DNA of 62,440 bases, filler included, from an uncultured Methanosarcinales archaeon (lineage in GTDB: Archaea; Nanobdellota; Nanobdellia; Woesearchaeales; B54-G15): assembly GCA_964519225.1 (NCBI GenBank). It is 6 parts of 6 records of this genome, joined end to end, with 100 filler letters (N's around TTAATTAATTAA, not from the genome) between each part and the next. Parts side by side here need not be neighbours in the genome. Positions count along the whole stretch, not along the records: positions 25,620 to 36,718 come from CAZFJK010000024.1; 5 more parts are not named here. One strand, given 5' to 3'. The notes below the pieces were generated by a model. That model saw nothing but the letters and a program-made list of their open reading frames with translations, was not told where the DNA came from and did no database searches. Position numbers and translations under genes: made by a program. Positions 25,620 to 55,745 of the stretch are shown piece after piece; the first letter of the stretch is position 1, and every line of letters starts with the position of its first letter.

Positions 25620-26059
25620 AGAGCAGCAGTCCGCAAGTCTTTTCCTACTGAACGAGCATAATCCATTGTAGCTTGAACTGCCTTTTCCATTAATTCAGGT
25701 GCGATATTGAATCTCAGAAACAGTGTCTCGATTGACTCAATTGTTTCGTCGCCATAGGTGGTCGTCATCTGTAGGGCAGAAGCCAAATCGGTCAGCTTTT
25801 TATAAGTTTCTTCCGAATATGCCCCTACATTCTTAAGAGCTTCAGCAAGTGCAAAGTCTGCCTTTTCCTGCTCCATTGCCTCTTCGGTTGTACTCTTGAG
25901 CCACTTGATTACTTCATAAGAGCCAAAAGCTAAGCCGAAAGCACCCGCCAGCTTTTTCGCAGTCTTAAGCAATCCACCGAGTCTATTGTCAATGCGTGAC
26001 AGGTCTTTCGACATTTTGTCTACAAGAGCAAAAACTACATTTATCCTTTTTTCAGCCAT
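25620..26059 (-). CDS. Phage tail tape-measure-like protein, N-terminal part (truncated)
   Basis: Ala/Gly-rich N-terminus, EQEKA...LA.AL...LASALQ.TTTYGDE...A.MDYA...G.DL.TAA; SD GGAGG. Confidence 0.7.
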
Positions 26060-26364
26060 TTTCTTTTCCCTCCTCTGGTTTGTGGTTTATTCTCCCGCAC
26101 CGGAATAAATCCCAGTGCCAAAATCCCAAAAGCTTTGATTTATGTCGTTTTTCTCTATCATCCCAGCAATCCCTTGAAAATACAGGGATTTTCAACTGTG
26201 TCAGTGTGCCATATTTGTGCCAAAAATTTTTATAAAATGGTGTAAAATGATGTAAATAATGTAAACAATGTAAAACTTCCTGATGAGGCTTTTTTGAAGT
26301 TATATCAAGGCTTTTCCTCATCATTGCTATGTTCCTCCTCATTGGGGTCTTTTACCCTATGATT

Positions 26365-26410
26365 GGACTCATAATCCGTTGGTTCGGGGTTCGAGTCCCT
26401 GCGGGCCCAC
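26365..26410 (+). mobile_element. att site: 3' half of a tRNA(CAT) (Ile2/Met) without its 5' half
   Basis: GGA-CT-CAT-AA-TCC anticodon arm, GGTTCGAGTCC T-arm and CGGGCCCA acceptor strand; the upstream sequence is not tRNA-like. Confidence 0.75.
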
Positions 26411-26845
26411 GTTTTATTTTTGGGGAATTCCCAGAAAAATCAAGCTTTCCGCCATTTCAACTACTCTCTTCCAAAACCATCATTCATATCAATTTTACCA
26501 AAAAATGAAAATTTTTGGTGTAGAGGGGAAAAAACTCAAACCTGCTTGGTGAATAATCTTACCTCCAAATAATATTTTGCTGATTCTGTGACGCTGAACA
26601 GGCAGATTTTCAGCAACTGAGCTATTTCATCTAGTCCAAATGTTCTGGCTCTTCTTGCAAGGTGATGGAAATGCCAACCTGCCCAATTGTTTATCATGTA
26701 GGGTCACTTTCTTCTGAATCTTCAATAAAATTAAAAGAGAAATAACACGACTCCGTATTTTTATCTTTCGCATCCAGCAAAGTGTAACCTAAGAAATAGC
26801 AAAAATTGAGTTTAGATCAGAAAAATAAGAAGATAAAGTGATTCG

Positions 26846-28585
26846 TTACCTCTCTTTTTTCTTCGCATTTTCATTTTTACTTTCTAACTTCTTTTTTAAC
26901 TGTAATGCTAGCTCATAATTTGGATTAATAGCCAAAGCTTTATTGACGCTAGTGAGAGCTTCTTCATGTTGACCTAAGAGTGTATGGACTAATGCTTTAT
27001 TATACCAAGCCTTTTCGTTATTCGGGTTAAGATGTAGAATTTTCCCAAAATACTCTAAAGCTTGAGTATAGTTGCCAAGATTTGATAGTGCTATTCCTTT
27101 ATTTAGTAAGGCAGACTCATAATGGGGATCTATTTCCAGCGCTTTGTCTAAATATGTGAGAGCCTTGTGGGATCTTGCCATTTTGTTCAGTAAGTTTCCT
27201 AAATTATTATATGCTTCCTTTAAATTGGGATTAAGCTCAATAGCTTTTCTGTAGTAGAGTTCTGCCAGCTTGTAAAGTCCTTTATTAGCTAAATTGATAC
27301 CCAAATTTACTATTAGATCTGGTGAAGCATTCATAGGCATAGGGATAACTAACATCTGTATAGTCCATCCCGGTGCTACATAAGAGGTTATGATTTTGTT
27401 CTCCCAGAATATAGTATAAGGACTTCCTAACTCATCCGTATAAAGCACAGGTTGAGTTAAACAAACAGTATCCAAATCCAAATGTTTTTCAAGCCATCCC
27501 CTAACAAACTCCTCAACTTTCCCGAGTATTAGTTCTGGCCCTACATTTAACTTAATGAGTTCGGGTAGCTGAAGAACTGGCTTTCCTGCAACTTCAGATA
27601 CATCGATATAGATGACTTTTCGTCCCTTACCTAGGCTTCCAAGTTGTTTGTTAGCCTTATGTAAATTTTTCCTTAATTTCTTACAAATTTCGTTATATTT
27701 GTTTGGATTTCTTAATATTATAATTTTAGGATTCTTGATTTTTGGAGTACCATCAAATACTCCGAAATAAGACGTACTAAGCAAAAATTCTATATTTTCA
27801 GGATTTGGTGGTACTTGAATTGGTGTCACATATTCAATTAATTCGGGTAAGTTCTGTACATCTACGTATATATCATTGTCTTTTACTGCTGTATCTTCTT
27901 TAACGGCTTTTTTAACAGTTTTGACAACCCTTTCTATATCTCTTTTCTCCTTTGGAGTCCTTATCAGAGTTATGTCTATTAAAGCATTTACATCTTCCTG
28001 AAATAACCAAGATCCAATTTCAATCGCTGTCTCAACATAATTATCATTCCTTGTAAGCCTTTTACACTCTGCGTACACATCCAGATCACCCTTTTTAGCA
28101 TAAATATCAGGCTTACCTTCCTCAAGCAAGTCTAAGAAAGTAACTTCAAATCCACGAGAAGCATAGTTAGAAGCTACAAGAACATGATGCATGAATGATT
28201 CAAATTTATCTTTCCTATAATCCAGTAATTGACCCATAATAGCGCTGTCGTCGAGTGATACAACGCCGTGTTTCAGTAGGTTGTCAAAAGCGTACGTGAA
28301 TATTAGTATTTTCATAAATTCTTCTATATCTGTAGAAAATCTTAAATCGAATGAATAATTTCTATTCCTAATATTATACAAAATTTCATACCATTTAGCC
28401 ACTCTATGGACATTTGGTTCTATAAGATATTTTAATTCTTCAGGCTTACCTTTTGGTGCTAGGCTCTTCAGTTTTCTATATTGTTCTGCAATATAATCTT
28501 TTCCAAATATCTTGGTGAGAAAATCAATCAACGAATCAATTAGCTCCTTTGGAGTTCCAATTTTATCCCATCCTATAGGACTCAT
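26846..28585 (-). CDS. PD-(D/E)xK nuclease-like domain plus C-terminal TPR repeats
   Basis: KPDIYA...YAECKR motif; about four TPRs (AYNNLG, ALLNKG, AWYNKA). Confidence 0.7.
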   Translation of the reverse strand: MSPIGWDKIGTPKELIDSLIDFLTKIFGKDYIAEQYRKLKSLAPKGKPEELKYLIEPNVHRVAKWYEILYNIRNRNYSFDLRFSTDIEEFMKILIFTYAFDNLLKHGVVSLDDSAIMGQLLDYRKDKFESFMHHVLVASNYASRGFEVTFLDLLEEGKPDIYAKKGDLDVYAECKRLTRNDNYVETAIEIGSWLFQEDVNALIDITLIRTPKEKRDIERVVKTVKKAVKEDTAVKDNDIYVDVQNLPELIEYVTPIQVPPNPENIEFLLSTSYFGVFDGTPKIKNPKIIILRNPNKYNEICKKLRKNLHKANKQLGSLGKGRKVIYIDVSEVAGKPVLQLPELIKLNVGPELILGKVEEFVRGWLEKHLDLDTVCLTQPVLYTDELGSPYTIFWENKIITSYVAPGWTIQMLVIPMPMNASPDLIVNLGINLANKGLYKLAELYYRKAIELNPNLKEAYNNLGNLLNKMARSHKALTYLDKALEIDPHYESALLNKGIALSNLGNYTQALEYFGKILHLNPNNEKAWYNKALVHTLLGQHEEALTSVNKALAINPNYELALQLKKKLESKNENAKKKER

Positions 28586-28687
28586 CCTATCTCCTTCAGT
28601 ATTTCAGTAATCAATCATAATTAAAAGCTTTTCACCTTCGCCCTAAAAGCACCAATGCCTTGGGACAGTCAACGCCCCCATTGTTTA

Positions 28688-29095
28688 TCATGATTGCAAG
28701 TTTAGAGGAGCTATGAAGTGCTTCAAATCCACCCATTTAACTCTGCCAAATATGGGGTAGAGCAAAATCTGCTTATCCTTATAATTTATTTTTGGTCTTT
28801 CCGAACTTTCTACAATTTCGATTTTTCCATCAATAACAATCTGGATTATGTAATTTCCCCTCACAAGAAAATTTGCAGCATCCTGCAGGAGGTTTCTTAT
28901 TTTTCTTGAGATTTTTTCTGGTTCTTCGGAATAGTAAAGCAGGTTCTCTATGCCAAAAACAGCAAAGTTAAGCGGGAGTTCTTCCTCCCTGTAAACTTGC
29001 CTCAAAAATTCAATTATACTTATTCTTTCGGTGAATACCTGATCTGAATGTTCTCTTTTTTCAATGATATTAAAGCCTATATCCATGCCTGCCAT
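28688..29095 (-). CDS. Hypothetical protein, last gene of the defence operon
   Basis: Starts 3 nt after the methylase stop; SD GGAGG. Confidence 0.7.
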   Translation of the reverse strand: MAGMDIGFNIIEKREHSDQVFTERISIIEFLRQVYREEELPLNFAVFGIENLLYYSEEPEKISRKIRNLLQDAANFLVRGNYIIQIVIDGKIEIVESSERPKINYKDKQILLYPIFGRVKWVDLKHFIAPLNLQS

Positions 29096-29098
29096 TAT

Positions 29099-31960
29099 TT
29101 ACACCTCCAAATGTTTCTGCTTAATCCATCTGTCCTTAAGGAACTTTATTAAGTCTTTGTAAGTTTTATCGTTCTCAATTTCATAGAGGTATTCAAGGGT
29201 TTTGATTACAGGTTCTGAAGACCACAGAGTTTTTTCATCATCGCTTAGGGATTCCTCAAACTTGAAGATTGTTCCCTCTTTCCAGAGATGGTATAGGTAG
29301 TGAACCCTATCAATGGCAGATAACTCTCTTTTTGATTCTATGATCTTCGCTCTCTCCTTTGGTGTCAGGATTAAAAGCTGGCTTCCCTCTTTTTCAACAA
29401 GTCCTGAGTCCAAAACCTCTTTCATTGGAATATTTCTCATTTTTAAAGCTTTGTTCAGGGAATCGTAGGATATGCTCGTTTTTCCAGCCATGTAGAATAG
29501 ATATACCGCCGTTATGGTGTCGGTTTCTGCTGCAACCTGATTGAAGCGGGTGTGCATCAGTTGAGAGTCAACTATTTCTCTGATTGTAGATAATGCCTCA
29601 TCAATGGATACTCTCTTACCGTTCTTATAAACCTCTGGATAGTGCTTAGAGTAGAGTTCAAGGCACTTTCCTATGGTTATGACGAATATATCCTCTTGAG
29701 AGAGATTTCTCTTTCTCGCCTCCAAGCGTTTTATCTCATCCTGAACTTTAAAGTAAATTTCATCTTCTATCTGCGACCAGTATCTTTTTTCTGGCTTTTC
29801 CTTTCGCTTTCTGCAAACAACAACCATGTCATAGCGAACATTTGCTTTCTGAAAGATATGGGTAGATGTGCTTTTTTCTGACTGGACAGGATAAATCGCT
29901 GAGATATAAAAGCCTGCATTTAGAACAGATTGCAAGACCGCTCCCCAAGCTTTCTCTTCCTGATGATGAAACGTGAAGACCATCAAGCCATCGTCTTTCA
30001 ATTTTCTACCTGCCTCTTTGAAAACAGCTGTTAAACCTTCAATAAAATCTTTCTCGTCTTTTTCTTGAACATCATTCACTATTATCTCCGTTGCATTTGG
30101 CACATGCTCGCTTCTGAAGTATTCGTATTTGTCCTTCAATGCTAAGCGAAGCCATGCATAGTAAAATTCGGAGAGTTCAGAATACATCACATTGCCATAA
30201 TAGGGCGGGTCTGTTATCACCGCATCAACGGATTTGTCTGGAATATCAAGGTAAGAAGAATCCCCACAGGTTATCATCACATTTGCATTGTTATTGAATA
30301 CATTGCCAATCTTTCCAATTATCTGCATTTTCATAGGTTTTTCCTGAGTTTTGCCATTTTGGATGTATTTTTCGAAAGTTCTAAGATTGTATTGTTTGCC
30401 AAACAAGACTTTATCAAAAATATGCTCAAAAGTTCCAAGACCATAACCACAGCCCCATGGATTATTCTCTACAGGATTAATAGATGGATGAAAAGCGTGT
30501 TTGCTAAACAGCTCTTTAAGCTTGTTTGCAGCTCTATTATATTCACAAAGCATATTTTGATAGTTTAAATCATCTGAAAAAGTAATCACCAACAACTCTC
30601 TCACATTCTCATCCACATCCAGCTCCAAAATCGCCTTCAAAAGTTTTCCAAGGCTCAAAAGCTGTCTTTCATTGAACATATCTTTCCAGTATTTGTAGCC
30701 GTGATTTTCAATAAGTCTTGGATAAGTTTCCTGACCTTTGGGAATCTCAGTATCCGGTATATACTTCCCAAGCCACTCTTTCTCCACACCCTTAAATTCT
30801 TCTCTTGCTTTTTCAAAAAGAGTGAAATCAAACTCCTCTGCCTGCTTGTAATCCTTCCTTTCACAATGTGGGCAGTAATACTCAACAGCATAAAGTCTCT
30901 CTTCTGGCTTCCCCGTCTTCTTAATCGCCTCTACAATCACATTTTTTTGTCCACAATCTGGATTTGTGCAGAAGAAAAACTTGTCAATTACATTTTGGAT
31001 AGGTTTTATCTCAGGACTTTTGCACTTAGGACATTTTGTTTTATTACCGATACTTTTCACTTTGAATTTATGACCACATCTCAAACACTGCGTATTTTTT
31101 TCTGGATTAAATATGGTTTCACATCTGGAACATTTTGCGTCTGCCTCGCTATCCTTAACAACAAAAATATTTCCGCATTTGGGACAAATCACATGATAAC
31201 CCTTCCCATCCCTTGTTTTTGCTAGCATATAGCCTCTGAAAAGCGAGACTTTGGTTCCACAGGCAAGGCAGGGAACTTCCTTTATCCAGAAAGAATACAT
31301 TATATCAGCAAAGATGTTTCTCTTACCATCAATCTTTGACCTATCTTCAAACCAGTACTGCTCATAAACTTCCCTTGGATCATCTGCGTTCTTTAATTTC
31401 TCAATCACTTCTTTTAAAACATCCTCAGGTTCTCTGTTATGAATCTTTGCGTATTCTTCTAAACAATGCGGGCATATAGTCTTGTAGTATTTTTTTATTT
31501 CGTCAGTGATTTGATTTTCCAACATCCCAAATGCTTTCTTTAACTCCTCAATATCTACCGGCTCCACAATCTTCTTAACCAAAAACCATGCAACTGGATT
31601 CAAATCCTGAGCAACAACCTTACAACCCGTCCTTAATGCTTCAACAACAGTAGTTCCACCACCCATCATGGGATCAAGAACAATTTTCTCGCCAAAATCA
31701 ACATCTTTGAGATACAAAAGCCAGGGATTTTTCAGCTCCTCTTTTGTTATCTTTCGCCATTTACCTGTTCTTTCATCAAAAACTCTGGTATTTTCATCAA
31801 CAAGAGTATAGAGAACAATTGTCCTGAATACACTTCCAAGCCTTCTCGCCCACCATTTGTGGATAAAAAGCACGGGTCTATACTTTTCTTTTGCATGAGC
31901 TTCCCTTTCTGCAATCTCATTTACATCCTCTATGGGAAAATCTTTTTCAATAGGCTTCAT
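29099..31960 (-). CDS. Zn-ribbon-containing adenine DNA methylase (DUF1156/COG1743 type)
   Basis: IHKWWARR, VLDPMMGGGTT, multiple CxxC, VITDPPYY, FTFHH. Confidence 0.9.
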   Translation of the reverse strand: MKPIEKDFPIEDVNEIAEREAHAKEKYRPVLFIHKWWARRLGSVFRTIVLYTLVDENTRVFDERTGKWRKITKEELKNPWLLYLKDVDFGEKIVLDPMMGGGTTVVEALRTGCKVVAQDLNPVAWFLVKKIVEPVDIEELKKAFGMLENQITDEIKKYYKTICPHCLEEYAKIHNREPEDVLKEVIEKLKNADDPREVYEQYWFEDRSKIDGKRNIFADIMYSFWIKEVPCLACGTKVSLFRGYMLAKTRDGKGYHVICPKCGNIFVVKDSEADAKCSRCETIFNPEKNTQCLRCGHKFKVKSIGNKTKCPKCKSPEIKPIQNVIDKFFFCTNPDCGQKNVIVEAIKKTGKPEERLYAVEYYCPHCERKDYKQAEEFDFTLFEKAREEFKGVEKEWLGKYIPDTEIPKGQETYPRLIENHGYKYWKDMFNERQLLSLGKLLKAILELDVDENVRELLVITFSDDLNYQNMLCEYNRAANKLKELFSKHAFHPSINPVENNPWGCGYGLGTFEHIFDKVLFGKQYNLRTFEKYIQNGKTQEKPMKMQIIGKIGNVFNNNANVMITCGDSSYLDIPDKSVDAVITDPPYYGNVMYSELSEFYYAWLRLALKDKYEYFRSEHVPNATEIIVNDVQEKDEKDFIEGLTAVFKEAGRKLKDDGLMVFTFHHQEEKAWGAVLQSVLNAGFYISAIYPVQSEKSTSTHIFQKANVRYDMVVVCRKRKEKPEKRYWSQIEDEIYFKVQDEIKRLEARKRNLSQEDIFVITIGKCLELYSKHYPEVYKNGKRVSIDEALSTIREIVDSQLMHTRFNQVAAETDTITAVYLFYMAGKTSISYDSLNKALKMRNIPMKEVLDSGLVEKEGSQLLILTPKERAKIIESKRELSAIDRVHYLYHLWKEGTIFKFEESLSDDEKTLWSSEPVIKTLEYLYEIENDKTYKDLIKFLKDRWIKQKHLEV

Positions 31961-33900
31961 GATCCATCCCCTTTACTTGGATTAAGTAATGCCATTTCAT
32001 ACAAAAATTGAGATGGCTCCACCGGTTGCTGCAGTCCTGAGCGGGTAGACTTAAAATCAACATAACTTATGAACAACTTTTTCTTAGTCCTTGTAATTGC
32101 TACAAAGCAATTTCTCCTTTCTTCTTCCAATTCTCTTATATCGCCTTTTTCAGCTTTTCTAATTGCTCTATAATCAGGCCAGACACCTTGATTGAGAGAT
32201 ATAATAAATACATAATCAAACTCTAATCCTTTGGAGGCATGCCCTGTTAAAATTGCCACACCTTTTCCTTCTCTTTTAGACGACATAGCAAGAAAATTCA
32301 AAAACTCACCCAAATCGTCGGTCTTATGCTGCTTTTTAAAGTCCTTATACAGACTTTCAACAAATTCTATATCCTCTAAAATCTCCTCAGAATTCTGTTT
32401 TTTGATAACTTCAAACATTTGATTAAGATAATCTTTCAGATTGCCGTTTTCATCTTTTTCTAAAACAAGAGCAAGTTCAGCATTTATTTTTTTGAGATTT
32501 TCTATGGCTATATCAAAGAGAGTAATATCTGGGGTTTCTACCAAGTCTTCGTAATCCAAACCGAGATTTTCACATATTCTGTAGAACGAAATTTTATTGT
32601 TTCTATTAACCTTCAATTTAAGAAAGTCAAGAACGAGGTTAATGTCTTTACTTATAATTTTTTCCTGTAGCATTGGAACGTAATATGGTATGTTCTCCTC
32701 ATCTAATTTTTTTATTACCTCATTTAGAACATATCTATTCCTGGCTATAACACAAAATTTGTTATTTTGATGTACAGGTATCCATTCAATTTCTTGAGAA
32801 ATTTCTTTTATTTTGTTTACAATAAATTTAGCTTCTTCTGATTGGGTCTGAAAATTATTCAATTCAACTACCTTTTTATCTGTATTGATTTCTTTAGTGG
32901 AACGAATAGGTTCCTTTCCACTTAATCTAAATTTGTTATGGCTTATTAAATTATTAGCGATTTTCAAAATTTCCGAAGGGCATCTAAAACTTTCATAAAG
33001 TTGAATAACTTCCATATTGTAATATTCTTTGAGCTCAACGAGATATTCAAATTTAGCATCATTCCATTCAAATATCAGTTGATCTTCATCTGCTACTATA
33101 AAGAGGTTAGGACATTCTTTATCACATAGAAGCTTTATAAGCTCTAACTGTGCCTTGTTTGTATCCTGTCCCTCATCTATCAATATATGCCTGTAAACCC
33201 TTCTTTGGAGAGCAGCCACAAAGGGGTTTTCCTTAAGCAAACGAACAGCATAATAAAGAAGGTCGGAAAAATCTAATACATTGTTTTTCTTTAAGGTTTG
33301 GTGGTATAAATCAAAAATAAAGATAAAATCTTCAGAATATCTCCCTTTTAAAAGTCCATTTTTTAATTCTTTTGGACCAATAAGCTTGTTTTTCAACTTC
33401 CTATAAGCATAGTAAAATCCGGGTATTGTATTTTCTATTATCCTTGTATTTGCATACTTCTCTATGAGGATAGGGGTTTCTTTTCCCTGTATTTCTTTTA
33501 ACACTCTTTCTTTAACGGCATCAATCAGAAGAGCTATTAAGTCTTCGTGATTGTTAAATATTACGAAGTCGGAATTTAACCCTACATATTCTCCATAAGC
33601 CCTGAGCAGATCGTGACAATAGCTATGAAATGTCCCAATGTAAGTTCTTTTAATCTGTTCATCGACAAGCGATTCAACTCTTTCCCTCATCTCTTTAGCA
33701 GCCTTATTCGTGAAAGTTAGGGCGAGGATTTTAAATTTCTCTTTAGGCGTTTTGCTTAAAATGTAAGCAATTCTTAAGGTTAAAACCCTTGTTTTTCCTG
33801 CGCCTGGTCCTGCAAGGACAAGAAGAGGACCTTTTGAATATGTAACGGCTTTTCTTTGTTGTGGTGTTAGATTATTTAAAAATTTGTTTGTTGATTTCAT
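31957..33900 (-). CDS. UvrD/Rep-family helicase (GajB-like)
   Basis: LTPQQ, AGPGAGKT, TFTNKAA, TFHS, DEGQD, H.SKGLEF and EEERR..FVAITR motifs. Confidence 0.92.
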   Translation of the reverse strand: MKSTNKFLNNLTPQQRKAVTYSKGPLLVLAGPGAGKTRVLTLRIAYILSKTPKEKFKILALTFTNKAAKEMRERVESLVDEQIKRTYIGTFHSYCHDLLRAYGEYVGLNSDFVIFNNHEDLIALLIDAVKERVLKEIQGKETPILIEKYANTRIIENTIPGFYYAYRKLKNKLIGPKELKNGLLKGRYSEDFIFIFDLYHQTLKKNNVLDFSDLLYYAVRLLKENPFVAALQRRVYRHILIDEGQDTNKAQLELIKLLCDKECPNLFIVADEDQLIFEWNDAKFEYLVELKEYYNMEVIQLYESFRCPSEILKIANNLISHNKFRLSGKEPIRSTKEINTDKKVVELNNFQTQSEEAKFIVNKIKEISQEIEWIPVHQNNKFCVIARNRYVLNEVIKKLDEENIPYYVPMLQEKIISKDINLVLDFLKLKVNRNNKISFYRICENLGLDYEDLVETPDITLFDIAIENLKKINAELALVLEKDENGNLKDYLNQMFEVIKKQNSEEILEDIEFVESLYKDFKKQHKTDDLGEFLNFLAMSSKREGKGVAILTGHASKGLEFDYVFIISLNQGVWPDYRAIRKAEKGDIRELEEERRNCFVAITRTKKKLFISYVDFKSTRSGLQQPVEPSQFLYEMALLNPSKGDGS

Positions 33901-35690
33901 AATATCCCCACTTCTTTCTTAAGCCTATCAAGAAGATTTTTTATAATTTTAGGCAGGTCTAAATTATGCTCTATAATATGTTCTGCTAATGCTTCCGAAA
34001 ACAGAATTTTATATTCTGTTTGATCTAAAAATTTATCAAGAAGCTCGTTCGCAGACGAACTTCTGTTATCTGGTTGATTCTTATATTTTGACCATAAAGA
34101 ATTCAGTCTGTCGTGCTGGGTTATTATCTCAAGAATTTTATCTTTACCGTAAGAATGAACCATGTATTTTTCAAAATCCATTCCCGAGGGCATATAAAAA
34201 ACATTGTCATTATCTAGATTGTAGTCTGTGTTAGAGAGTATGTTTTTCACTTCATTAATTCCATCTCCATCAGAAAGTAATAACCACTTTATATTAAAGG
34301 CGTGAGGATGAGCAATCTTAAGAAACGGAGCATAAGTTTTGCCGTTACATGGTATTATAGTAATTCCTAATTCTCCAGGGGTTCTCTTTAAATAATATGG
34401 AATAATTCTTTCCAGAAAAATCTTTTCTGTATCTCCTTCACAAAGTAAAAACAAAGAAGCAAAGAAAAGTTCAGGATTTCGGTATTGGACAAATCTTTTA
34501 ATTTTTAATTCCTCTTCTTTATTCAGGAACCTGTTGTGCTCATAAGCTTGTTCAGGAAGACCGTATTTAAATCGAAAGTTCTTTTTAAACTTGGGAATCT
34601 TAGATAACTTCGTAATTCCGTTATCTAAACGAAATACTACATAATCATAAATATCCGCCTGCTCCACGATATACGGGGAATGGGTACTTATTATTTTCTG
34701 ACCTTTTATTTGTGAAATCTGATGGAAAAGAGCCCTCTGAACATGAGGATGAACATGGGCTTCAGGTTCTTCAATTCCAATGATTGCTGTTGCTTCTTCA
34801 TTTTCAAGTATCTTGGGAAGTAATATTTCAAGATATGCAGAAAATACAAGTAGAACAACGATATTCTGTGTTCCAGCCCCATGTTTTGCTATAGGTAGTG
34901 ATAAACTTGTGTTGGGCAATTTTAGATAAATATTCAAGTCATCAAGAATTTCCCAGCTTCTGCGAGCAAAAGCTTGAAGAGAGATTGCATCTTGTGTGAT
35001 TTTAATACTCCTTTCAAGATTTTTTAATTTTGTCTTAAGTTGTTCAATTGTTTCATTGTCTGAAAGCACAATATTATCTATTTTACGAAGTAGCTCTTCT
35101 ATTTGGTCTTTCTTGTCCGAATAATCAATAATTGATTTTATTCTTCCCCAAAATGACCCTTTTGTTTTTATTTCTTTATTAATATCCCTTAATGCAGGTA
35201 TGTAGAAGAATGGGAAAAAACTTAAATGATCTTTTTTAACTTCTGAATTTCTTGCAAGTTTCTTGTTGTTTTCATCAACAAAATATCTATCTTCTGTAAA
35301 TTTACCTTTTTCTTTGTCAAATCTACATTCATAACAGATACGGAAAAATTTAATTGGGTTATCTTGACATTGTGCTTTATCAAATCTTATGACTTTATCG
35401 AAAGTACTTACAATATTGTCCGAAAATCTTTCATCTGGGGTTTCCCTGAATTCTACAACTATTTTTAAAGGTCCTGCAGTTTTGGGGTCAAAATCTTTCC
35501 CTTCCGCATAAAAGTCGTCCTCATTGGGCGTCATTCTCCTTTCCCAGCCGATTGCCAGATTTAATGCATGCAAAAAGGATGTTTTCCCTGCGTTATTAGG
35601 ACCAATTAATACATTGATATTTTTTGATAGTTCGACACTCGTGTTTTTATGACTTCGAAAATTATATATTTCAACTTTATGTATGTGCAT
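33897..35690 (-). CDS. OLD-family ATP-dependent nuclease (ABC ATPase + TOPRIM; GajA-like)
   Basis: NFRS, GPNNAGKT, GAGTQ signature, IEEPEAHVHP, STHSP; TOPRIM CEGDTE and DGD. Confidence 0.9.
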   Translation of the reverse strand: MHIHKVEIYNFRSHKNTSVELSKNINVLIGPNNAGKTSFLHALNLAIGWERRMTPNEDDFYAEGKDFDPKTAGPLKIVVEFRETPDERFSDNIVSTFDKVIRFDKAQCQDNPIKFFRICYECRFDKEKGKFTEDRYFVDENNKKLARNSEVKKDHLSFFPFFYIPALRDINKEIKTKGSFWGRIKSIIDYSDKKDQIEELLRKIDNIVLSDNETIEQLKTKLKNLERSIKITQDAISLQAFARRSWEILDDLNIYLKLPNTSLSLPIAKHGAGTQNIVVLLVFSAYLEILLPKILENEEATAIIGIEEPEAHVHPHVQRALFHQISQIKGQKIISTHSPYIVEQADIYDYVVFRLDNGITKLSKIPKFKKNFRFKYGLPEQAYEHNRFLNKEEELKIKRFVQYRNPELFFASLFLLCEGDTEKIFLERIIPYYLKRTPGELGITIIPCNGKTYAPFLKIAHPHAFNIKWLLLSDGDGINEVKNILSNTDYNLDNDNVFYMPSGMDFEKYMVHSYGKDKILEIITQHDRLNSLWSKYKNQPDNRSSSANELLDKFLDQTEYKILFSEALAEHIIEHNLDLPKIIKNLLDRLKKEVGIL

Positions 35691-36585
35691 ACTTCTCCAC
35701 CTCCAGCACGGGAACAAAACATTCCATCAGACTCAAACCACCGTGTATATAAATGCTATATTTTCCAGGAACAGGCCACAGATAGCGGGATTTTGTTATA
35801 TAGTATCCATTGAATTCCTTTACATATCCCTCCTTTATTAAGTCTTCAACATCAAGGTTGTCCATTTCCACATATCTTTTGCTGCCAAAAATCTGCTGAA
35901 ATTTTCTCTTTGCTTTTTCAGATACAGGAAAAACAAAACCCGCCTCTGTCCTTATATATCCATGGTCCGATGTAATGATTATCCTCTCTGACTTCAATTT
36001 TGATAAAATTTCAAGAACAATTTTTTCCACAATTTTATACAACTCTTCAAGCGATGAAATTACAGTGTGTCCGGTTTTTATTTTATCCAGCATTACATCC
36101 GGGAAATAAGACCAGATGTATCTCTCATCGCTTGTGAGCCTTATATTTTCGGGATTGCTTATCTGTGAAAAATCACTCATGGATTTCTTTATTTTCCCTC
36201 TAAAAAATTCGGTATCCGAAGGTACAGCAGAAAAGTTAAGTTCATGTTTTACATCGTATCCTTTGCTTTTCAAAGATTTATATAGTAAAGCACTTTCCCT
36301 AATGCTCATTCCATCCATGATTACAATGGCAGCATCTGGATATAGTTGGAAAACATCTTTTTCCTCTAAAGATGCTTTTGCAAACAGGGAATAAAATTCC
36401 CAGTAAGATTTCAAAATGAACTCTTCAAAATCTCTTACTTCCTCCTCGCCTTTGTAATAATAATCTCCAATCTTATTACCCTTTTCAGCTTCATTTAACC
36501 ATATTTTTAAGAGTCTCTCTCCTACTGATTGGACAGGGTCATTACTTTCAATGAGTTCCATTATGAAATCAGTTTCAATTCTCAT
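35677..36585 (-). CDS. PglZ-like alkaline-phosphatase-fold protein
   Basis: IVIMDGMSIRE, PSDT, ITSDHGY and HGGLSLMECFVP motifs; SD GGAGG. Confidence 0.8.
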   Translation of the reverse strand: MRIETDFIMELIESNDPVQSVGERLLKIWLNEAEKGNKIGDYYYKGEEEVRDFEEFILKSYWEFYSLFAKASLEEKDVFQLYPDAAIVIMDGMSIRESALLYKSLKSKGYDVKHELNFSAVPSDTEFFRGKIKKSMSDFSQISNPENIRLTSDERYIWSYFPDVMLDKIKTGHTVISSLEELYKIVEKIVLEILSKLKSERIIITSDHGYIRTEAGFVFPVSEKAKRKFQQIFGSKRYVEMDNLDVEDLIKEGYVKEFNGYYITKSRYLWPVPGKYSIYIHGGLSLMECFVPVLEVEKYAHT

Positions 36586-36718
36586 CTTTTTCCCTCCATA
36601 ATATGACTTCTGCCTCAATTTCACTTTCTTCTTGATGAGGAAGTTGCTTGACAAATTTCATAATTTCCTGTTTGGAAAGTTTCTGTTTGAACTTATATTT
36701 TACAGAAATTTCTTCAAA
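36575..36718 (-). CDS. C-terminal fragment of the upstream operon gene (identity not visible)
   Basis: Open frame FEEISVKYKFKQKLSKQEIMKFVKQLPHQEESEIEAEVILWREKDEN* overlapping the PglZ start. Confidence 0.6.
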   Translation of the reverse strand, partial: FEEISVKYKFKQKLSKQEIMKFVKQLPHQEESEIEAEVILWREKDEN

Positions 36719-47478: not shown

Positions 47479-47520
47479 ATTTAAATAAGGTATATACTTA
47501 GCTTCATGTTGAAGCACTAT

Positions 47521-47982
47521 TTGCACACTAGAGTGTTGATGTGGTAATATGTTAATTTTACCTCTGTTTCCCTTTTGAAAGAGAGCTACCCTACACTCTT
47601 GACAACCTTGGGTGAAATGTGACATACTTTAAAATTTTCCCCTCTTACACTCCTCAAAACTACTTCTTGCAAACCAACATGTTGATGCATTAACATAGCC
47701 GACTTCATTTAAATCCCTTAGAAAAGCATCTGAAAGAACTCTTGACAACCTGGGTTAGAAAATGGTAAACTTGGAAATTTTGGTTTCGTACATCCCTCGG
47801 AACTATCACTTGCAAACTAGGATGGTGGTGGGGTAAAATGATGAACTTTCTCAATCCTTCCTCGAAGAGAAGTATTGAGGAACTCTTGACGACCTTAGTT
47901 GAAAAGTTGTATACTGAAAAATTTTGGTTGTATATCCTAACAAAATCAATACTTGCAAGCCAGAGTAATGATAGTGTAAATT
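47521..47982 (+). repeat. Degenerate tandem repeat (~143-146 bp, 3.5 units), each half carrying a sigma70-like promoter motif
   Basis: TTG-hexamers at 47521, 47599, 47667, 47742, 47810, 47886 and 47953, each followed after exactly 18 nt by (T/C)ANNNT; ACTCTTGAC(A/G)ACCT occurs three times. Confidence 0.8.
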
Positions 47983-48237
47983 TTCCCACTTTGCTTTAGG
48001 AGCTTTGTAACAAAATATAATGCTCGAAATTCTAAGTAACTTTCTTGACCAGAGATATTTTATAACGGCGGACTCATTGAATTTTCTCAATGTTTGCTTT
48101 ATATAATGATTGTGGTAGCTTAGGATAAGAGCAAGATATGTTATAATAATGTCAATTATATGTGATGCTGCTGAGTAAGAAGATAAATATAAACACATTA
48201 AGTCCATATCCCTCAGCTATCTTAAGGAGGTAAATGT

Positions 48238-49227
48238 ATGACAGATAAAGCTATGTGGATGGTAAGAGCTGGTGAAGGTGCTTATCTTTTCCATGAATTT
48301 AGAGATAAGAATGTTGTTGCCATAAGCTGGAATGAGGTAGGAGACCTTTCTAATATATCCAGCCCTGAAGAAATAAAGAGGATTGTTAAAGAGAAGTATC
48401 ATTATAGGCTGGGTAAATTAAATATGACAGCTGCACAACTCAGTAAATTTAGATTTGACTTCAAAAAAGGGGACTATGTTGTAACTTATAATCCAGAGGA
48501 AAGAATCTATCTGGTGGGGGAAATCATTGGTGATTACGAATACAATCCTAAGTTGTTGGAATATTTCCATATTCGGCGGGTTAAGTGGTTGGGTGATGTT
48601 CCAAGAGATAAGCTTTCAACTCCGACAAAAAACACTTTAGGAGCTATTTCTACGTTATTTGAGTTAAGTGAAAGTGCAAAGGAGGAAATTCTCCAAATTT
48701 TAAAAGGAAAGGAAGAAATTCCTGAAGGTATTGAAAGTGCTGAGGAAGAAATGGAATCTATCAAAGAAGATATGATAGCTAAGGCGCATGAGTTTATTAA
48801 AGACAAAATTTTGAGCTTAAATTGGGAAGAGATGGAAGAATTAGTTGCTGGTATTCTGAGAGGTATGGGTTACAAGACAATGATCACACCGAAGGGACCT
48901 GATAGAGGACGGGATATTTATGCTTCTCCGGACGGTTTAGGATTAGAAGAACCAAGGATTATTGTAGAGGTAAAACACAGGACGGGTCAGGTAGGAGGGA
49001 AAGAAATGAGGAGCTTTATAGGTGGTCTCCGACAAGGGAATAAAGGTTTGTATATTTCAACAGGAGGGTTCTCTAAAGATGCAAAATATGAAGCCGAACG
49101 CTCCAATATACCGGTAACACTAATTGATCTGGATATATTAGCTAATCTTATAACTCAATATTATGATAACTTTGATGAAGAGACTAAAAAACTTATTCCA
49201 CTTGTGAAGATATATTGGCCAGCATAG
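48238..49227 (+). CDS. Mrr-family restriction endonuclease
   Basis: MWMVRAG N-terminus; EELVA..L..MGY, GPDRGRD...VEVKH and ISTGGFS..A..EA. Confidence 0.88.
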   Translation: MTDKAMWMVRAGEGAYLFHEFRDKNVVAISWNEVGDLSNISSPEEIKRIVKEKYHYRLGKLNMTAAQLSKFRFDFKKGDYVVTYNPEERIYLVGEIIGDYEYNPKLLEYFHIRRVKWLGDVPRDKLSTPTKNTLGAISTLFELSESAKEEILQILKGKEEIPEGIESAEEEMESIKEDMIAKAHEFIKDKILSLNWEEMEELVAGILRGMGYKTMITPKGPDRGRDIYASPDGLGLEEPRIIVEVKHRTGQVGGKEMRSFIGGLRQGNKGLYISTGGFSKDAKYEAERSNIPVTLIDLDILANLITQYYDNFDEETKKLIPLVKIYWPA

Positions 49228-49465
49228 TATATATAAAATGGAAGGATATTTATCTAAAGGCGGAAAAAATGCTTAAAAGATTTGGACAGGATGTAGATGC
49301 ACTTTACTATTATCATAGAATGCCCCTATTGGGGTCACCTTACAGGTGTATATTAGGCTTAGTCAACATTTCATCCAAATTACCGGCTCTGCATTTTACT
49401 TGGCTGTTTAATGATGTGCTTTGCAAAAATCGAGTCGATAGGATAAAATAATCATAACAGAAGAA

Positions 49466-50623
49466 ATGAGTATACTAAAGGAACCTGAAGATTATAAAAG
49501 TTGGGATAAACTAATCCACCATTGTGAAGAAATTGAAGGCTTAACTGACTTTGAGAAAGAAAAAGCTAAGCGTGCCTTTCTATTCTTAAAAAAGGAATTC
49601 GGGAACAATTTTCTGAATGATGCTTTCCATAGAAGACATCCAATCTACCAATATTTGATAAACCTAGCGCCATGGACTCGTAGATGGATAATATGGTTCG
49701 CAGAGGCACTTAAAGAATTGAAAGAGCAAGAAAATTATTCTAGTTTGTTCAATCGAATAATAGATGAAAATAAATTTGATGAAGGACTTTCAGTGCTAGA
49801 GATAGGTTATAAGTTTTCAAAAGCCGGGTTTAAAATAACTATAGATCCTTCTGTTAGAATTTCAGGTAGGGAGAAAAAACCAGATTTAAAGTTAATAGAT
49901 AGAGATAACGGGGAAGAAATGTATGTGGAAGTCTCTGTTTTGGGTGAAAGTAAAATAATGAGTAATGCTTTTCAGACAATGCAAAGGATTTTTGAAGTTT
50001 TATGGCGCTCTGTTCCATTTATACACTATTGTGGGCGTATTCATAAGACCTTATCCGATAAACACTTAGATCAGGTCGTTAATAAAGTTGAAAAACTTGT
50101 GGAGAGGACTAAAAGAAATGATTCCTTTGAGGAATTAATTATTGAAGATGTTATTGAAATAGGGGTAGCACCAAAAAGTGACCACCACCTTTTACAGAAA
50201 TGGGCAGTAGAGAGAGGATTAAGAGTAGGGGAATTTTCAGGCCCATCATACGATGTAGATGAAATATTGAGAACAAAGAGAAAAATTGAAAAAGAACAAA
50301 AGCAATTACCATCAAATTATCCTAACATCATGGTTATCAGGAATAACGATCTATTCTTTGACACTCACGATATCAGAAAGGCAATTAGCGAATTAGAAGA
50401 AGAAATATACAGGTATCCCCACGTATTGTTTGGAATAATAGAAGGAGGATATGTGGGTAGCGGAGAGAATATAATCTCTATGAAAGATCAGCACGTGTTT
50501 ATCCAAAAAAACAAGATTAATTTACTTGTGGAGCAATATATTATTCTGTTTAATCAATTCTGCGAATATAGGATTTTACCAGCGACAATTACAAAGATAT
50601 ATAATGCTTTCAGAAATTACTAA
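49466..50623 (+). CDS. Hypothetical protein with PD-(D/E)xK-like motif
   Basis: KKPDLKL...MYVEVS; located in a defence cluster. Confidence 0.6.
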   Translation: MSILKEPEDYKSWDKLIHHCEEIEGLTDFEKEKAKRAFLFLKKEFGNNFLNDAFHRRHPIYQYLINLAPWTRRWIIWFAEALKELKEQENYSSLFNRIIDENKFDEGLSVLEIGYKFSKAGFKITIDPSVRISGREKKPDLKLIDRDNGEEMYVEVSVLGESKIMSNAFQTMQRIFEVLWRSVPFIHYCGRIHKTLSDKHLDQVVNKVEKLVERTKRNDSFEELIIEDVIEIGVAPKSDHHLLQKWAVERGLRVGEFSGPSYDVDEILRTKRKIEKEQKQLPSNYPNIMVIRNNDLFFDTHDIRKAISELEEEIYRYPHVLFGIIEGGYVGSGENIISMKDQHVFIQKNKINLLVEQYIILFNQFCEYRILPATITKIYNAFRNY

Positions 50624-50826
50624 CTTTAAAAATGGAGGTACAGGGTGCATAACATACCACCAAGCGAGATGCTTCACCACTATTATAGCTCACTCTTTGG
50701 GTTGCGTTATAGGAGCATATCTTGTTTTGCTGTTGCGTGTCATCTCAAATCCTCGCTTCGCTTGAATTTGGAGTATGTCCCGAACGTTAGGCTAAAATTT
50801 TGTAGTTGTCTTAAGGAGGTGCAAAT

Positions 50827-52668
50827 ATGCCTAGAAACAAACAGCTTAAACTGATAGCGGATGAAGGAGAAACTAAAGAAGTAATCCCTCCAGGGAAGAT
50901 TAAATGTTTTATTACAGGTAAACTTAGAAAAGATACACCCGAAGAAAGAATACGCCAAGATGTAGCGAGAAGCCTCGTTGAGGAATATGGATACAACAAG
51001 GATGATATTGATATTGAATTTCCTATCAAGATGGGTAGGGATAGAAAAAGAGTTGATATTGCTATTTTTGAAGAAGGAAATGAACATAAACAGGAAAATA
51101 TTTATACTATCGTAGAAGTCAAAACTGAAAATATTAAACCATCCGATAAGAAAGAAGGTATAGAACAACTTAAAAGTTATGTCGCTGCATGTATAAATAC
51201 CCGGTTTGCTCTTTGGGTTGGAAGTGAAAGGTTAGCGTTTAAGATTGTAGAAGAGAAGGGAAAGAAAAAACTAGAAGAAATTCCTGATATTCCCAAAAGA
51301 GGAGAAACAACAATACCGAAGCCCACCCGTGGTTCTCTTGTTCCGGCCGTAAACTTAAAACAGGTATTTAAGAGAGTCCATAATTATATCTACGCTAATC
51401 AAGGATTTCAAAAAGATAAAGCATTTGAAGAACTCTTAAAACTAATTTTTATCAAAGTTTACGATGAGCAATACAGCCCTTCCTTACAATTTTACATTCT
51501 CCCTGGAGAGGATATAGACAAGGTCAGAGAGCGATTGAACAAGCTTTTTAAGAAAGTTCAAACTCGTTATAAGTACATTTTCAAAGGTAATGAGATTATT
51601 GAATTGAATAATACAGTGTTAAAGTATGTAGTTTCAGAGCTTCAGAGGTTTAGCCTTGTTGATACGCAAACTGATGTTAAAGGAGAAGCCTATGAAGAAA
51701 TCGTTGGTCCTAATTTAAGAGGAGATAGAGGAGAGTTCTTTACACCTCGTAATGTCTGCAACATGAGTATTGAAATGCTGTTCTCTCTTATTCCAGAAGA
51801 CAAACTAACAAGTCCGGGTGGTATGAAAATCCTTGACCCTGCCGTTGGAACAGGAGGTTTCCTTATCGCTGGCGTTCAGAAAATAAAACAGGTGTTTTTA
51901 AACCGTGGCTTCAGATTTGACCAATTACGAGATCTGGTAAGGGATGTTGCCAATGCTAATTTCTATGGCATAGATTTCAATCCATTCCTTGTTAAAGTAG
52001 CTCAAATGAATATGGTTATGCATGGAGATGGCTCCGCCAATATAGTTCATGCTAATTCTCTTGAAAATCCTTCAGATTGGAACAGTGATGCAAAGGAAAA
52101 GATAAAGTTTGGTGAATTTGATTTGGTAGTTACAAATCCACCTTTTGGGACAAAAGCAGTGGTAGATAATCCAGATATACTAAGTCAATTTGAATTAACG
52201 ACTTTTAGAACAAATTCACCACGAACGGCTCTACCCCCAGAACAATTGTTCATTGAGAGATGTTTAGATTTTCTTAAACCCGGTGGTTATCTTGGTATTG
52301 TCTTGCCTGACAGCATATTGAGCAATCCAGGATTAAAGTGGATAAGGGAATGGATACTAAAGAAAGCATATATCATAGCGAGTATTGATCTACCGGTAGA
52401 AACCTTTGAACCCCACACAGGAACACAGACAAGTATTCTGATTCTGAAAAAGAAAACGCCTGAACAACAAAAATTACAAGAAGATCATCAAATATTCATG
52501 GCTATTCCCGAAAAAGTTGGACACGATCGCAGGGGTAACCCAATATACAAAACCACACCAGACGGGGAAATAGAGCTTGATGAAAATGGAAATCCAATAA
52601 TTGAAGATTATTTACCTTCAGTTGCCAAAGCATTCAAAGAATGGTTAAAAAGGAAAGGGATGATATGA
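50827..52668 (+). CDS. Fused restriction/N6-adenine methylase subunit (HsdR-N nuclease + HsdM-like; type IIB/IIG-like)
   Basis: PEE.IRQ...RVDIAIF...VEVK, GEFFTPR, DPAVGTGGF and TNPPFG motifs. Confidence 0.88.
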   Translation: MPRNKQLKLIADEGETKEVIPPGKIKCFITGKLRKDTPEERIRQDVARSLVEEYGYNKDDIDIEFPIKMGRDRKRVDIAIFEEGNEHKQENIYTIVEVKTENIKPSDKKEGIEQLKSYVAACINTRFALWVGSERLAFKIVEEKGKKKLEEIPDIPKRGETTIPKPTRGSLVPAVNLKQVFKRVHNYIYANQGFQKDKAFEELLKLIFIKVYDEQYSPSLQFYILPGEDIDKVRERLNKLFKKVQTRYKYIFKGNEIIELNNTVLKYVVSELQRFSLVDTQTDVKGEAYEEIVGPNLRGDRGEFFTPRNVCNMSIEMLFSLIPEDKLTSPGGMKILDPAVGTGGFLIAGVQKIKQVFLNRGFRFDQLRDLVRDVANANFYGIDFNPFLVKVAQMNMVMHGDGSANIVHANSLENPSDWNSDAKEKIKFGEFDLVVTNPPFGTKAVVDNPDILSQFELTTFRTNSPRTALPPEQLFIERCLDFLKPGGYLGIVLPDSILSNPGLKWIREWILKKAYIIASIDLPVETFEPHTGTQTSILILKKKTPEQQKLQEDHQIFMAIPEKVGHDRRGNPIYKTTPDGEIELDENGNPIIEDYLPSVAKAFKEWLKRKGMI

Positions 52669-54113
52669 TGATGGAAGGAGTCCAAATTGTTGATGTTCCC
52701 GTTCATTGGGTAAATGAAGGTGAAAAGAGACTTGATGCTGGATTTTATGCCCAAGATGTAATTGCGGCGAAAATACTTATAGATAAGATTGAACATAATC
52801 TAAAAATACAGCCGATTAGCAAGCTCTCAAGCCAGATATTCTGGCCGGGTAGATTCAAAAGGCATTATGTTTCTAAAAAAAAGGGTGAGCCATTTCTTAT
52901 GCCAAGTGAAGCTTTCATGTTTTTACCCAAACCCACCAAATATGTTATTAACTATCCAGAGGACGTTGTAATAAAAAGAGGTTGGCTGTTAATAACCCGT
53001 TCAGGTACAATAGGTAGAACTTTGATCGCGACAAACTACCTTGAAAATTTTGTTTTGTCCGACGATTTAATAAGAATTATCCCAAAAAAAGATGCAAGTT
53101 ATGGATACTTATACTGTTATCTTAACACATGGATAGGACAAGCTTTTCTTACCAAAGACCAGTATGGAGCCACGGTTAAGCACATAGAACCTCACCATGT
53201 TGCTAACATCCCTATTCCTCGTATCCCCAAGTTAGAAGAAGAAATAAATCAAAAAATCCTTCAAGCTCATAAATTGCGAGAAGAAGCCCAGGAGCTTCTT
53301 TTAAAAGCAGAGGAAATGTTATATTCAGAACTTGGATTACCCAAAATAGATGAAAATGATATTGAATATTTTGGTGGCAAAGTAGGAAGACTTGTTAAAG
53401 CTTTTGAAGTTAAGGCAAGTAAACTGGATTATAGGTTGGATGCGAGTTACCATGTGCCGATAGCACACTTAATAGTTTCAAATCTAATAGCATCAACCTC
53501 CGGAGAGATAAAAAAATTAAAAGATGTTGCAGATTCGTTTGTGCCACCGAGATTTAAAAGACCTTACATAAAAGACCCGAATGACGGTATTCCACTTCTA
53601 CAAGGAACTCACATTCCTCAAATTAAACCTTTGGGCATCAAGTATATTTGGAAAAGAATGGAAAATATACAAGCTTATATTGTAAAGAAGAATTGGATAC
53701 TGGTTACTTGTTCAGGAACTATAGGGAGATTGGCTTTAGTAAGTGATTACTGGAATGGCTGGGCTGCAACTAACCATCTATTGAGAATCATGCCTAAAGA
53801 GGAGAAAATTAATCCCGGTTATTTAACCGGATTTTTACATAGTGTATATGGACAAGTTCAATTCCAACGACTTATTTATGGTGGTGTTGTAGATGAAATA
53901 GGCGAGGCAGGAGAACTCTTTAATAATATCTTGATTTTGAAACCTAAAGATAAATCTATTGAAGACAAAATCGGCTCTTTAGTAATCGAAGCATATAACA
54001 AAAAAGATAAAGCGAATCAAATTGAAGAAGAAGCCATAAAACAACTGGAAGAGACTTTAACAGAAATTGCTGAAAGAGTCTTAATTGAAAAACCAAATGA
54101 ATTTAGTCAATAA
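52665..54113 (+). CDS. Specificity subunit (HsdS-like, two TRDs)
   Basis: Two repeats of RLDA.(F/Y)...L.T.SGTIGR...Y....L.(T/S)..GQ; ATGA overlap with the methylase. Confidence 0.85.
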   Translation: MMMEGVQIVDVPVHWVNEGEKRLDAGFYAQDVIAAKILIDKIEHNLKIQPISKLSSQIFWPGRFKRHYVSKKKGEPFLMPSEAFMFLPKPTKYVINYPEDVVIKRGWLLITRSGTIGRTLIATNYLENFVLSDDLIRIIPKKDASYGYLYCYLNTWIGQAFLTKDQYGATVKHIEPHHVANIPIPRIPKLEEEINQKILQAHKLREEAQELLLKAEEMLYSELGLPKIDENDIEYFGGKVGRLVKAFEVKASKLDYRLDASYHVPIAHLIVSNLIASTSGEIKKLKDVADSFVPPRFKRPYIKDPNDGIPLLQGTHIPQIKPLGIKYIWKRMENIQAYIVKKNWILVTCSGTIGRLALVSDYWNGWAATNHLLRIMPKEEKINPGYLTGFLHSVYGQVQFQRLIYGGVVDEIGEAGELFNNILILKPKDKSIEDKIGSLVIEAYNKKDKANQIEEEAIKQLEETLTEIAERVLIEKPNEFSQ

Positions 54114-55542: not shown

Positions 55543-55707
55543 TCATTCTTGAGCATCAGAGAACCTTTGTAGAACACTCCCTTTTGTCCTCTCTTTGACA
55601 AAAAATTGTCATTTCATGAAAAAATTGAAACAGATGAGAGGAATGAGTGGGGGTTATAGGATCGGCGGAAAGCCTGATCTTTCAATATATTCCCCCAAAA
55701 TAAAAAA

Positions 55708-55745
55708 TGGGCCGTGCAGGACTCGAACCTGCGGCCACCGGATTA
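55708..55745 (-). tRNA. 3' half of a tRNA (bacterial Lys-like), cut by the contig end
   Basis: TAATCCGGTGGCCGCAGGTTCGAGTCCTGCACGGCCCA; the anticodon is not fully visible. Confidence 0.7.

Follow-up and report, generated by a model that had tools for sequence, protein, structure and literature searches.

The subject of this report is a putative defence operon in a 62,440-nucleotide stretch of DNA (the window) from an uncultured archaeon (assembly GCA_964519225.1), in which a Gabija gene pair lies embedded among genes related to those of bacteriophage exclusion (BREX) systems. The window consists of contigs chained by N spacers, and the locus takes up most of one of them, C24 (11,099 bp, window 25620-36718); the host assembly (G000) measures 0.87 Mb, is 97% complete and comprises 53 contigs. 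Six open reading frames (ORFs) follow one another on the - strand of this single contig: the last 47 codons of a DUF499-like AAA+ ATPase gene (36575..36718); a standalone PglZ of 302 aa, a nuclease of the alkaline-phosphatase fold (35677..36585); GajA, a class 2 OLD ABC-ATPase with a TOPRIM nuclease domain (597 aa, 33897..35690); GajB, a UvrD/PcrA-like SF1 helicase (647 aa, 31957..33900); a DUF1156 N6-adenine methyltransferase with a zinc-ribbon-rich insert (953 aa, 29099..31960); and a 135-aa protein, ORF135 (28688..29095). Consecutive ORFs overlap by 11, 14, 4 and 4 nt, and the last two are separated by a 3-nt gap. Because the window is made of contigs joined by N spacers, the truncation of the upstream ATPase gene reflects a contig end.

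An earlier note on this DNA had described the same six ORFs in the same order, and its overlaps and gap proved exact on recheck; its family labels (PglZ, OLD/TOPRIM, UvrD and Zn-ribbon adenine methylase) are likewise borne out by Pfam and PADLOC. The catalytic motifs of PglZ, GajA, GajB and the methylase are all intact. Independently assembled contigs from runs X1 and X2 (one sample, which may be the source) span the pglZ/gajA junction, and contigs from X1 and from X3 (another study) span the junction between ORF135 and the neighbouring TPR gene with 0 differences. No bridging piece for the gajB/methylase junction was found among the independently assembled matches listed; that junction is the same in five related loci (L001, L034, L049, L052 and L064; L-numbers denote related loci throughout, and G001 is the genome carrying L001).

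The ATPase stub shares 89% identity with residues 761-806 of the L001 ATPase (807 aa) and is the only match to it in the host assembly, in whose 53 contigs the remainder of the gene was not found. The L001 protein matches PADLOC HmaC (9.5e-24), DUF499 (3.3e-11) and NF042962 (2.1e-19, far below the cut-off of that model), and the ATPases of close relatives are about 810 aa long, so the earlier prediction that the missing upstream gene encodes a DUF499/BrxC-like ATPase is confirmed by the stub. PglZ (PF08665, E 1.8e-6) is a single-domain protein of about 300 aa throughout its family; all 40 of the 40 aligned homologues keep D91, T125, D207/H208 and H281 unchanged, and its model matches PorX (E 2.5e-8) and the BREX PglZ 9zn5 (E 3.9e-5). 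By motif position, T125 and H281 would correspond to T538 and H741 of the PglZ described in PMC12205998. The methylase combines the Pfam domains N6_N4_Mtase (PF01555) and DUF1156 (PF06634), matches HmaB, DUF1156_MTase and PglXI in PADLOC, and has motif I at 96, DPPY at 584 and seven CxxC pairs.

ORF135 has no match in Pfam, PADLOC or NCBIfam, and neither BrxB/BrxF nor any other meaningful Pfam match appeared in the 91 of its 114 homologues that were scanned; a homologue comes after the methylase gene in close and distant relatives alike. Its structural model (predicted local distance difference test, pLDDT, 88.9) resembles a P-loop core, with no Walker A in 24 aligned members. Most of the 50 matches listed by VIA-align are AAA+/RecA cores with middling scores (Z 3.3-4.5; best match Z 4.5, root-mean-square deviation 3.5, 101 aligned), and BrxB is not among these 50, which excludes nothing. 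Foldseek gave no match at E<=0.001, the Atlas search no informative one, and hhalign against the first 270 residues of the ATPase nothing. Structure prediction of a PglZ-ORF135 complex gave a score of 0.91, against 0.00 for the best of three controls, on a scale whose mark is reached by 116 of 157 solved pairs and by 2 of 215 mismatched pairs. At least 98% of the contacts are shared across runs, the partner pLDDT is at least 90, and the predicted interface lies on the N-terminal helices of PglZ (residues 1-13 and 52-64). As BrxB-PglZ complexes have already been solved, the high score speaks for likeness and is not proof of binding. The P-loop-like model and the complex score agree with the earlier suggestion of a BrxB-like accessory, and modelling leans towards ORF135 being an inactive STAND protein (iSTAND, with eroded Walker motifs) on a separate gene and a predicted partner of PglZ.

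The embedded pair has the architecture of Gabija, as the earlier note had recognized. GajA matches the PADLOC model PDLC00067 over nearly its full length (E 8e-108, residues 2-595), consists of AAA_15 and OLD-like TOPRIM domains with intact Walker A, signature, Walker B, H-loop and TOPRIM E/DxD motifs, and matches the class 2 OLD structures 6njv and 6nk8. GajB is matched equally completely by PDLC00114 (E 3e-152, residues 6-640) and has the helicase motifs; its nearest solved structure is PcrA (E 5.8e-68), with solved GajB chains at E ~1e-10. In the host assembly gajB is the only PF00580 (UvrD-family) match; no RecB/AddA-type helicase is seen there, and a NurA gene is present. A PglZ-GajA fusion, considered for a 670-aa GajA relative (P0242), was ruled out: the C-terminal part of that protein is a duplication and not a piece of PglZ.

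Whether Gabija belongs to the operon was examined in 83 loci gathered with PglZ homologues, 9 from GTDB genomes and 74 from metagenomes. The gene after pglZ is visible in 68 of them (the other 15 end too early and were dropped), comprising 47 close loci, with PglZ identity of about 47% or more, and 21 distant ones; the 32 close loci in which the slot is closed by the methylase gene collapse to 27 groups at 97% PglZ identity. The order ATPase, pglZ, optional cargo, methylase, ORF135 homologue is constant, and the slot between pglZ and the methylase gene, whose cargo labels were assigned by the analyst from locus annotations, is variable. Gabija occupies the slot in 7 of the 47 close loci, so that OLD/UvrD is no one-off insertion, as the earlier note had allowed that it might be. 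By groups, the slot holds Gabija in 4, other cargo in 12 and nothing in 11, and it is empty in all 21 distant loci. The other cargos are Ppl+Schlafen, MNT-HEPN, HD+DarG-C, PDC-M28, TnpB and a gene of ~345 aa of no known family.

The cargos are exchanged precisely. L034, with Gabija, and L032, with another cargo, share 96.4% identity across 3364 bp ending with pglZ, and 94.6% from the start codon of the methylase gene onwards; the two cargos are unrelated, and the breakpoints fall at gene ends. The PglZ closest to that of the window (L017, 91% identity) is followed by an empty slot. In a 50-row PglZ tree, built from the window and those 49 labelled loci whose aligned length is 240 residues or more, Gabija loci appear at five positions, with Gabija-free loci next to them. 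Pairwise identities tell the same story in both directions: L001 and L034 share 89% in GajA and 69% in PglZ, the window and L031 62% in GajA and 70% in PglZ. At the sequence level, then, the histories of cargo and core disagree, and Gabija is no obligate part of the core system. Cargos of every kind overlap or abut pglZ, which makes tight coupling a property of the slot and no sign of partnership. The six-gene hybrid proposed in the earlier note is thus not supported as a fixed system, given the 23 of 27 close groups that lack Gabija, the equally tight placement of other cargos and the incongruent histories. As the breakpoints lie at gene ends with no intergenic DNA, cassettes are probably exchanged through homologous recombination within the conserved genes on either side. 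Integron-type cassettes were considered as the swap mechanism and rejected: the cargos sit directly against their neighbours, leaving no space for attC-like sites, and blastn comparison of C24 with the rest of the genome gave only the flank of a half-tRNA and a short methylase match.

Some of the other cargos merit description in their own right. The ~345-aa gene occurs in 5 of the 47 close loci (L032:3540-4400, L038:10894-11931, L039:1555-2610, L040:1483 and L046:10901-11929); its L038 copy has no NCBIfam or PADLOC match, and by guilt of embedding it is a candidate new defence gene. An HD-domain (dGTPase-like) gene with a 170-aa DarG C-terminal-like gene forms the cargo in L019:10894-12632, L021, L022 and L056. 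In L051 (12011-18934) the operon breaks after MNT-HEPN and Ppl+Schlafen lies further on, on the opposite strand, which suggests an inversion of part of that locus.

A helicase gene completes the operon in most close relatives and is broken in the window. Two features just outside the range covered by the earlier note are an inserted TPR gene (579 aa, 26846..28585, -) and, beyond it, a stump of about 30 codons (26608..26697, -) that is 79% identical to residues 6-34 of the 531-aa G001 helicase; no full copy was found in the host assembly, in which other matches are weak (26-32%). In close relatives an SF2 helicase gene of 526-536 aa comes after ORF135; its products match PbeA (7.7e-79) and TIGR04095, a DNA phosphorothioation restriction enzyme family (5.6e-64), far better than BrxHI/II (6e-10), with no nuclease-domain match. 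Of the 17 close loci in which this region is visible, 13 have a long open frame, one of them extending past the contig end; the frame is stopped early in L023 and shortened in L050, and tblastn finds no match in L024 or L046. A PbeA/DndF-like helicase is absent from 12 of 12 distant loci examined, 6 of which have a HerA-like gene; in one distant clade (L081, L083, L085, L087, L088 and L089, with ATPases of ~1000 aa) this gene comes right after the ORF135 homologue. A second UvrD-like gene lies after the helicase gene in L038 (16767-20894; 908 aa, with a Cas4-like C-terminus) and L036 (13994-15285), and in L038 an OLD-like gene follows it, the reverse of the Gabija order.

We consider it about 70% probable that the locus is a restriction-modification operon related to BREX and built on four core genes (ATPase, PglZ, methylase and ORF135), in which Gabija is an exchangeable, methylation-blind second layer placed in a pglZ-methylase hotspot. 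By analogy to MANTIS, as far as it is described in the available text (10.64898/2026.09.23.753747), the ATPase would load the methylase on DNA, and the methylase would, again by analogy, place N6-methyladenine on host sites. PglZ, the predicted primary effector, would form a subcomplex with BrxB-like ORF135 that cuts or blocks unmarked invader DNA, by analogy to type I BREX in the accessible parts of PMC12205998. The Gabija pair would be a self-contained nuclease-helicase defence riding in the slot and co-expressed with the operon, probably acting as a second layer without reading the methyl mark, and the slot would be a hotspot for exchangeable defence cassettes generally. Consistent with this, the available portions of PMC12904381 attribute Gabija specificity to DNA-end sensing and RecBCD inhibition, not to methylation.

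Several observations weigh against this interpretation. The core may be crippled in the window strain, because its helicase is broken and its ATPase was not recovered. All six slot GajA proteins in the GajA tree fall in one 16-row clade (approximate likelihood-ratio support, SH-aLRT, 99, in a quick tree with some long branches), which has diverged to 62% identity, as deep as the divergence of PglZ, and gajB is immediately upstream of the methylase gene in every Gabija locus that reaches that far. One old clade with a fixed neighbour could mean specialisation rather than mere passage. The loci were gathered by PglZ, so the context of slot GajA is known from PglZ-containing loci; for clade members outside the slot no context was found, as GajA searches of 400, 79, 5 and 40 other genomes all returned 0. 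The 400 are those of the phylum of G001, among whose 401 genomes only G001 itself gave a match; viral contigs yielded one weak fragment, and the best plasmid match has 29-31% identity.

These features would also be expected if the slot Gabija lineage were a specialised guard, adapted to the core and firing when a virus inhibits it (compare PrrC with EcoprrI, and PARIS with Ocr), optional in occurrence but functionally coupled. For this we see a distinct though small chance. It draws on the single old GajA clade that is found in the slots of five backbone lineages and, wherever this can be seen, immediately precedes the methylase gene, and on the host itself: as it shows no RecB/AddA-type helicase, the RecBCD-based licensing of Pseudomonas Gabija, in the form given in the available portions of PMC12904381, cannot apply as such. 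On the other side, the slot serves at least six unrelated cargos, Gabija sometimes stands behind Ppl+Schlafen or MNT-HEPN within it, sister GajA clades (43-57% identity) occur in Bacillota and methanogens, and a single mobile lineage circulating in one vent and sediment community would yield equal GajA monophyly. In its general form, the earlier proposal that Gabija is a backup guarding a BREX-like core is plausible. A bolder combination, which we rate just as doubtful as the guard, holds that ATPase, PglZ, methylase and iSTAND form a complete, helicase-independent BREX-like system, a fourth BR lineage with an optional and swappable motor, and that slot Gabija is its dedicated guard, licensed by core inhibition and not by RecBCD. 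If so, the four-gene core would be the smallest BREX-like system found in this analysis, and such licensing would let Gabija work both in bacteria and in an archaeon with a small genome.

It is improbable that the locus is a decaying island, whose core no longer restricts once its helicase is destroyed and in which only Gabija, and perhaps the methylase, still work. The insertion of the TPR gene and the truncation of the helicase beside an att-like site fit such decay, and the helicase would seem to be normally useful, since 13 of 17 close relatives with this region visible keep a long open frame; on the other hand, PglZ, the methylase and ORF135 are full length with intact motifs, and a helicase-free core exists naturally, the 12 distant loci examined having no such helicase. 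Least probable is the other role proposed in the earlier note, in which a six-gene hybrid restricts through GajAB as its methylation-gated effector and GajAB would replace the broken SF2 helicase of the window strain: tight translational coupling, the helicase breakage and a GajB of PcrA-like length that could be a true translocase speak for it, but 23 of 27 close groups lack Gabija, other cargos overlap pglZ as tightly, L001 and L049 have both Gabija and an open helicase gene, and L023, L024 and L046 have lost the helicase without having Gabija.

The exchangeable second layer remains our preferred interpretation, and the operon as a whole was likely acquired horizontally, to judge from sequence comparison. 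No member of the PglZ family turned up in 400 further genomes from the host's phylum, nor in any of 18 candidate stretches of viral contigs; among named carriers, Desulfofervidaceae, a Methanosarcinales archaeon and an Aenigmatarchaeota archaeon are the closest. A near-identical locus in Desulfofervidaceae bacteria (79-85% protein identity), together with the absence from the host's phylum, points to transfer across domains. C24 may instead be mis-binned and not come from the archaeal host: its tetranucleotide correlation of 0.962 lies below the median of 0.981 and ranks ninth from the bottom among 65 windows. The half-tRNA at the edge of the locus, which lacks an encoded CCA, and a similar element end on contig C27 favour the archaeal host. 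A neighbouring contig in the window carries what we take to be an archaeal-type ribosomal protein and RNA polymerase operon.

The edge of the locus has features of an integrated element. The TPR insert (~2 kb) splits ORF135 from the helicase stump and is bounded by a 13-bp direct repeat, CATGATAAACAAT, at 28680-28692 and 26686-26698; in L023 the flanks of the insertion site are joined directly. The N-terminal 420 aa of the TPR protein (27326-28585, -) have no curated family match, while the remainder belongs to TPR families; this N-terminal part resembles unnamed Atlas clusters of 423-460 aa (score 0.94) and presumably has a PD-(D/E)xK-like motif, spotted by eye. Beyond the helicase stump lies the 3' half of a tRNA(CAT) gene (26365..26409, +), a likely attachment site, where ARAGORN reports no whole tRNA, and about 300 bp further on begins the N-terminal part of a tape-measure-like gene (25620-26059, -; PF06791, E 0.0015, below the cut-off). 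These two features would place the locus at the end of an integrated element, and the tape-measure-like fragment suggests that the defence island and a provirus or satellite stand in tandem. A half-tRNA with a flank similar to that of C24 (70% over 165 bp) also ends contig C27 (window 47479-55745), which carries a second defence cassette (genes 48238-55542, +): a PDC-S02/Mrr-like nuclease of 329 aa, an unassigned gene of 385 aa, a type I-like methylase of 613 aa, a specificity subunit of 490 aa and an unassigned gene of 485 aa.

How BREX restricts is still an open question, for which a 302-aa PglZ and a 135-aa BrxB-like partner, with or without a helicase, offer a much smaller test bed; the four-gene core could tell whether PglZ is the nuclease that restricts and whether restriction requires a motor. 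The slot is a hunting ground for new defence genes such as the ~345-aa cargo, and the apparent cross-domain transfer raises the question of how Gabija spares self DNA without RecBCD.

Compared with known systems, the locus differs from BREX types 1-6, as a multi-domain PglZ, BrxA, and PglX/BrxL or other type-specific genes were not recognised in the complete relatives examined. Type I BREX, in the accessible parts of PMC12205998, has a PglZ nuclease that requires metal and attaches to BrxB by its N-terminal part, the same end of PglZ as in the interface predicted here; that PglZ is ~880 aa and multi-domain, however, and BrxA, BrxL and PglX are absent here. Hma likewise carries embedded cassettes (embedded genes in 62.7% of systems, by the available text of 10.1101/2024.01.29.577857), and HmaB and HmaC are the best PADLOC matches of the methylase and ATPase, but Hma as presented there is a helicase, a methylase and an ATPase alone, whereas the window locus has PglZ and ORF135 in addition and no HmaA-type helicase. 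MANTIS / Gao_RL (Type-1/2 BR) shares the DUF499-type ATPase and DUF1156-type methylase; in the available text of 10.64898/2026.09.23.753747 it has MtsB and the helicase-nuclease MtsD and no PglZ, and neither MtsB nor MtsD is seen here, the helicase-nuclease fusion and MtsB/DUF3780 being missing and ORF135 having no Pfam match. Gabija itself is represented by two adjacent genes in the usual order, but GajB is PcrA-sized (647 aa, against ~494 in solved GajB), and the pair is embedded in another system, in an archaeal assembly without a second UvrD-family helicase.

The closest relative is the Type-3 BR system, which, as set out in the accessible sections of PMC12839542 / 10.1101/2025.10.09.681413, combines a DUF499 ATPase, a DUF1156 methylase with zinc fingers, a standalone PglZ, a small inactive STAND and the helicase BrxHII, is common in archaea, has embedded backup effectors including OLD/TOPRIM, HEPN-MNT and Schlafen, and is said to have neighbourhoods without conserved standalone nucleases. 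Four of these five parts have counterparts here: the ATPase (as seen in the 807-aa L001 orthologue, of which 47 aa remain in the window), a standalone PglZ with its metal-binding residues, an N6-methyltransferase with N-terminal DUF1156 and a zinc-finger target recognition insert, and, in ORF135, a probable iSTAND. The published helicase is a Swi2/Snf2 protein of BrxHII architecture (~940 aa), in place of which the window has the 30-codon stump and its relatives a PbeA/DndF-like SF2 protein, a HerA-like one or none. A full GajA+GajB pair inside Type-3 is not stated in those sections, where 'UvrD' has 0 occurrences. A search of titles and abstract openings, most subscription journals lying outside it, found no description of this four-gene core in which the helicase is either PbeA-like or missing. 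The arrangement largely matches a catalogued subtype, which the earlier note had named as a refutation of its reading: the core matches that of Type-3 BR, and embedded OLD/TOPRIM backups are published. As far as the accessible literature goes, two differences from the record remain: a PbeA/DndF-like, often lost helicase, and slot GajA that, where its context is known, forms one old clade. The locus would work like Type-3 BR with an embedded Gabija yet departs from it in its helicase, and we file it as a variant of the Type-3 BR layout.

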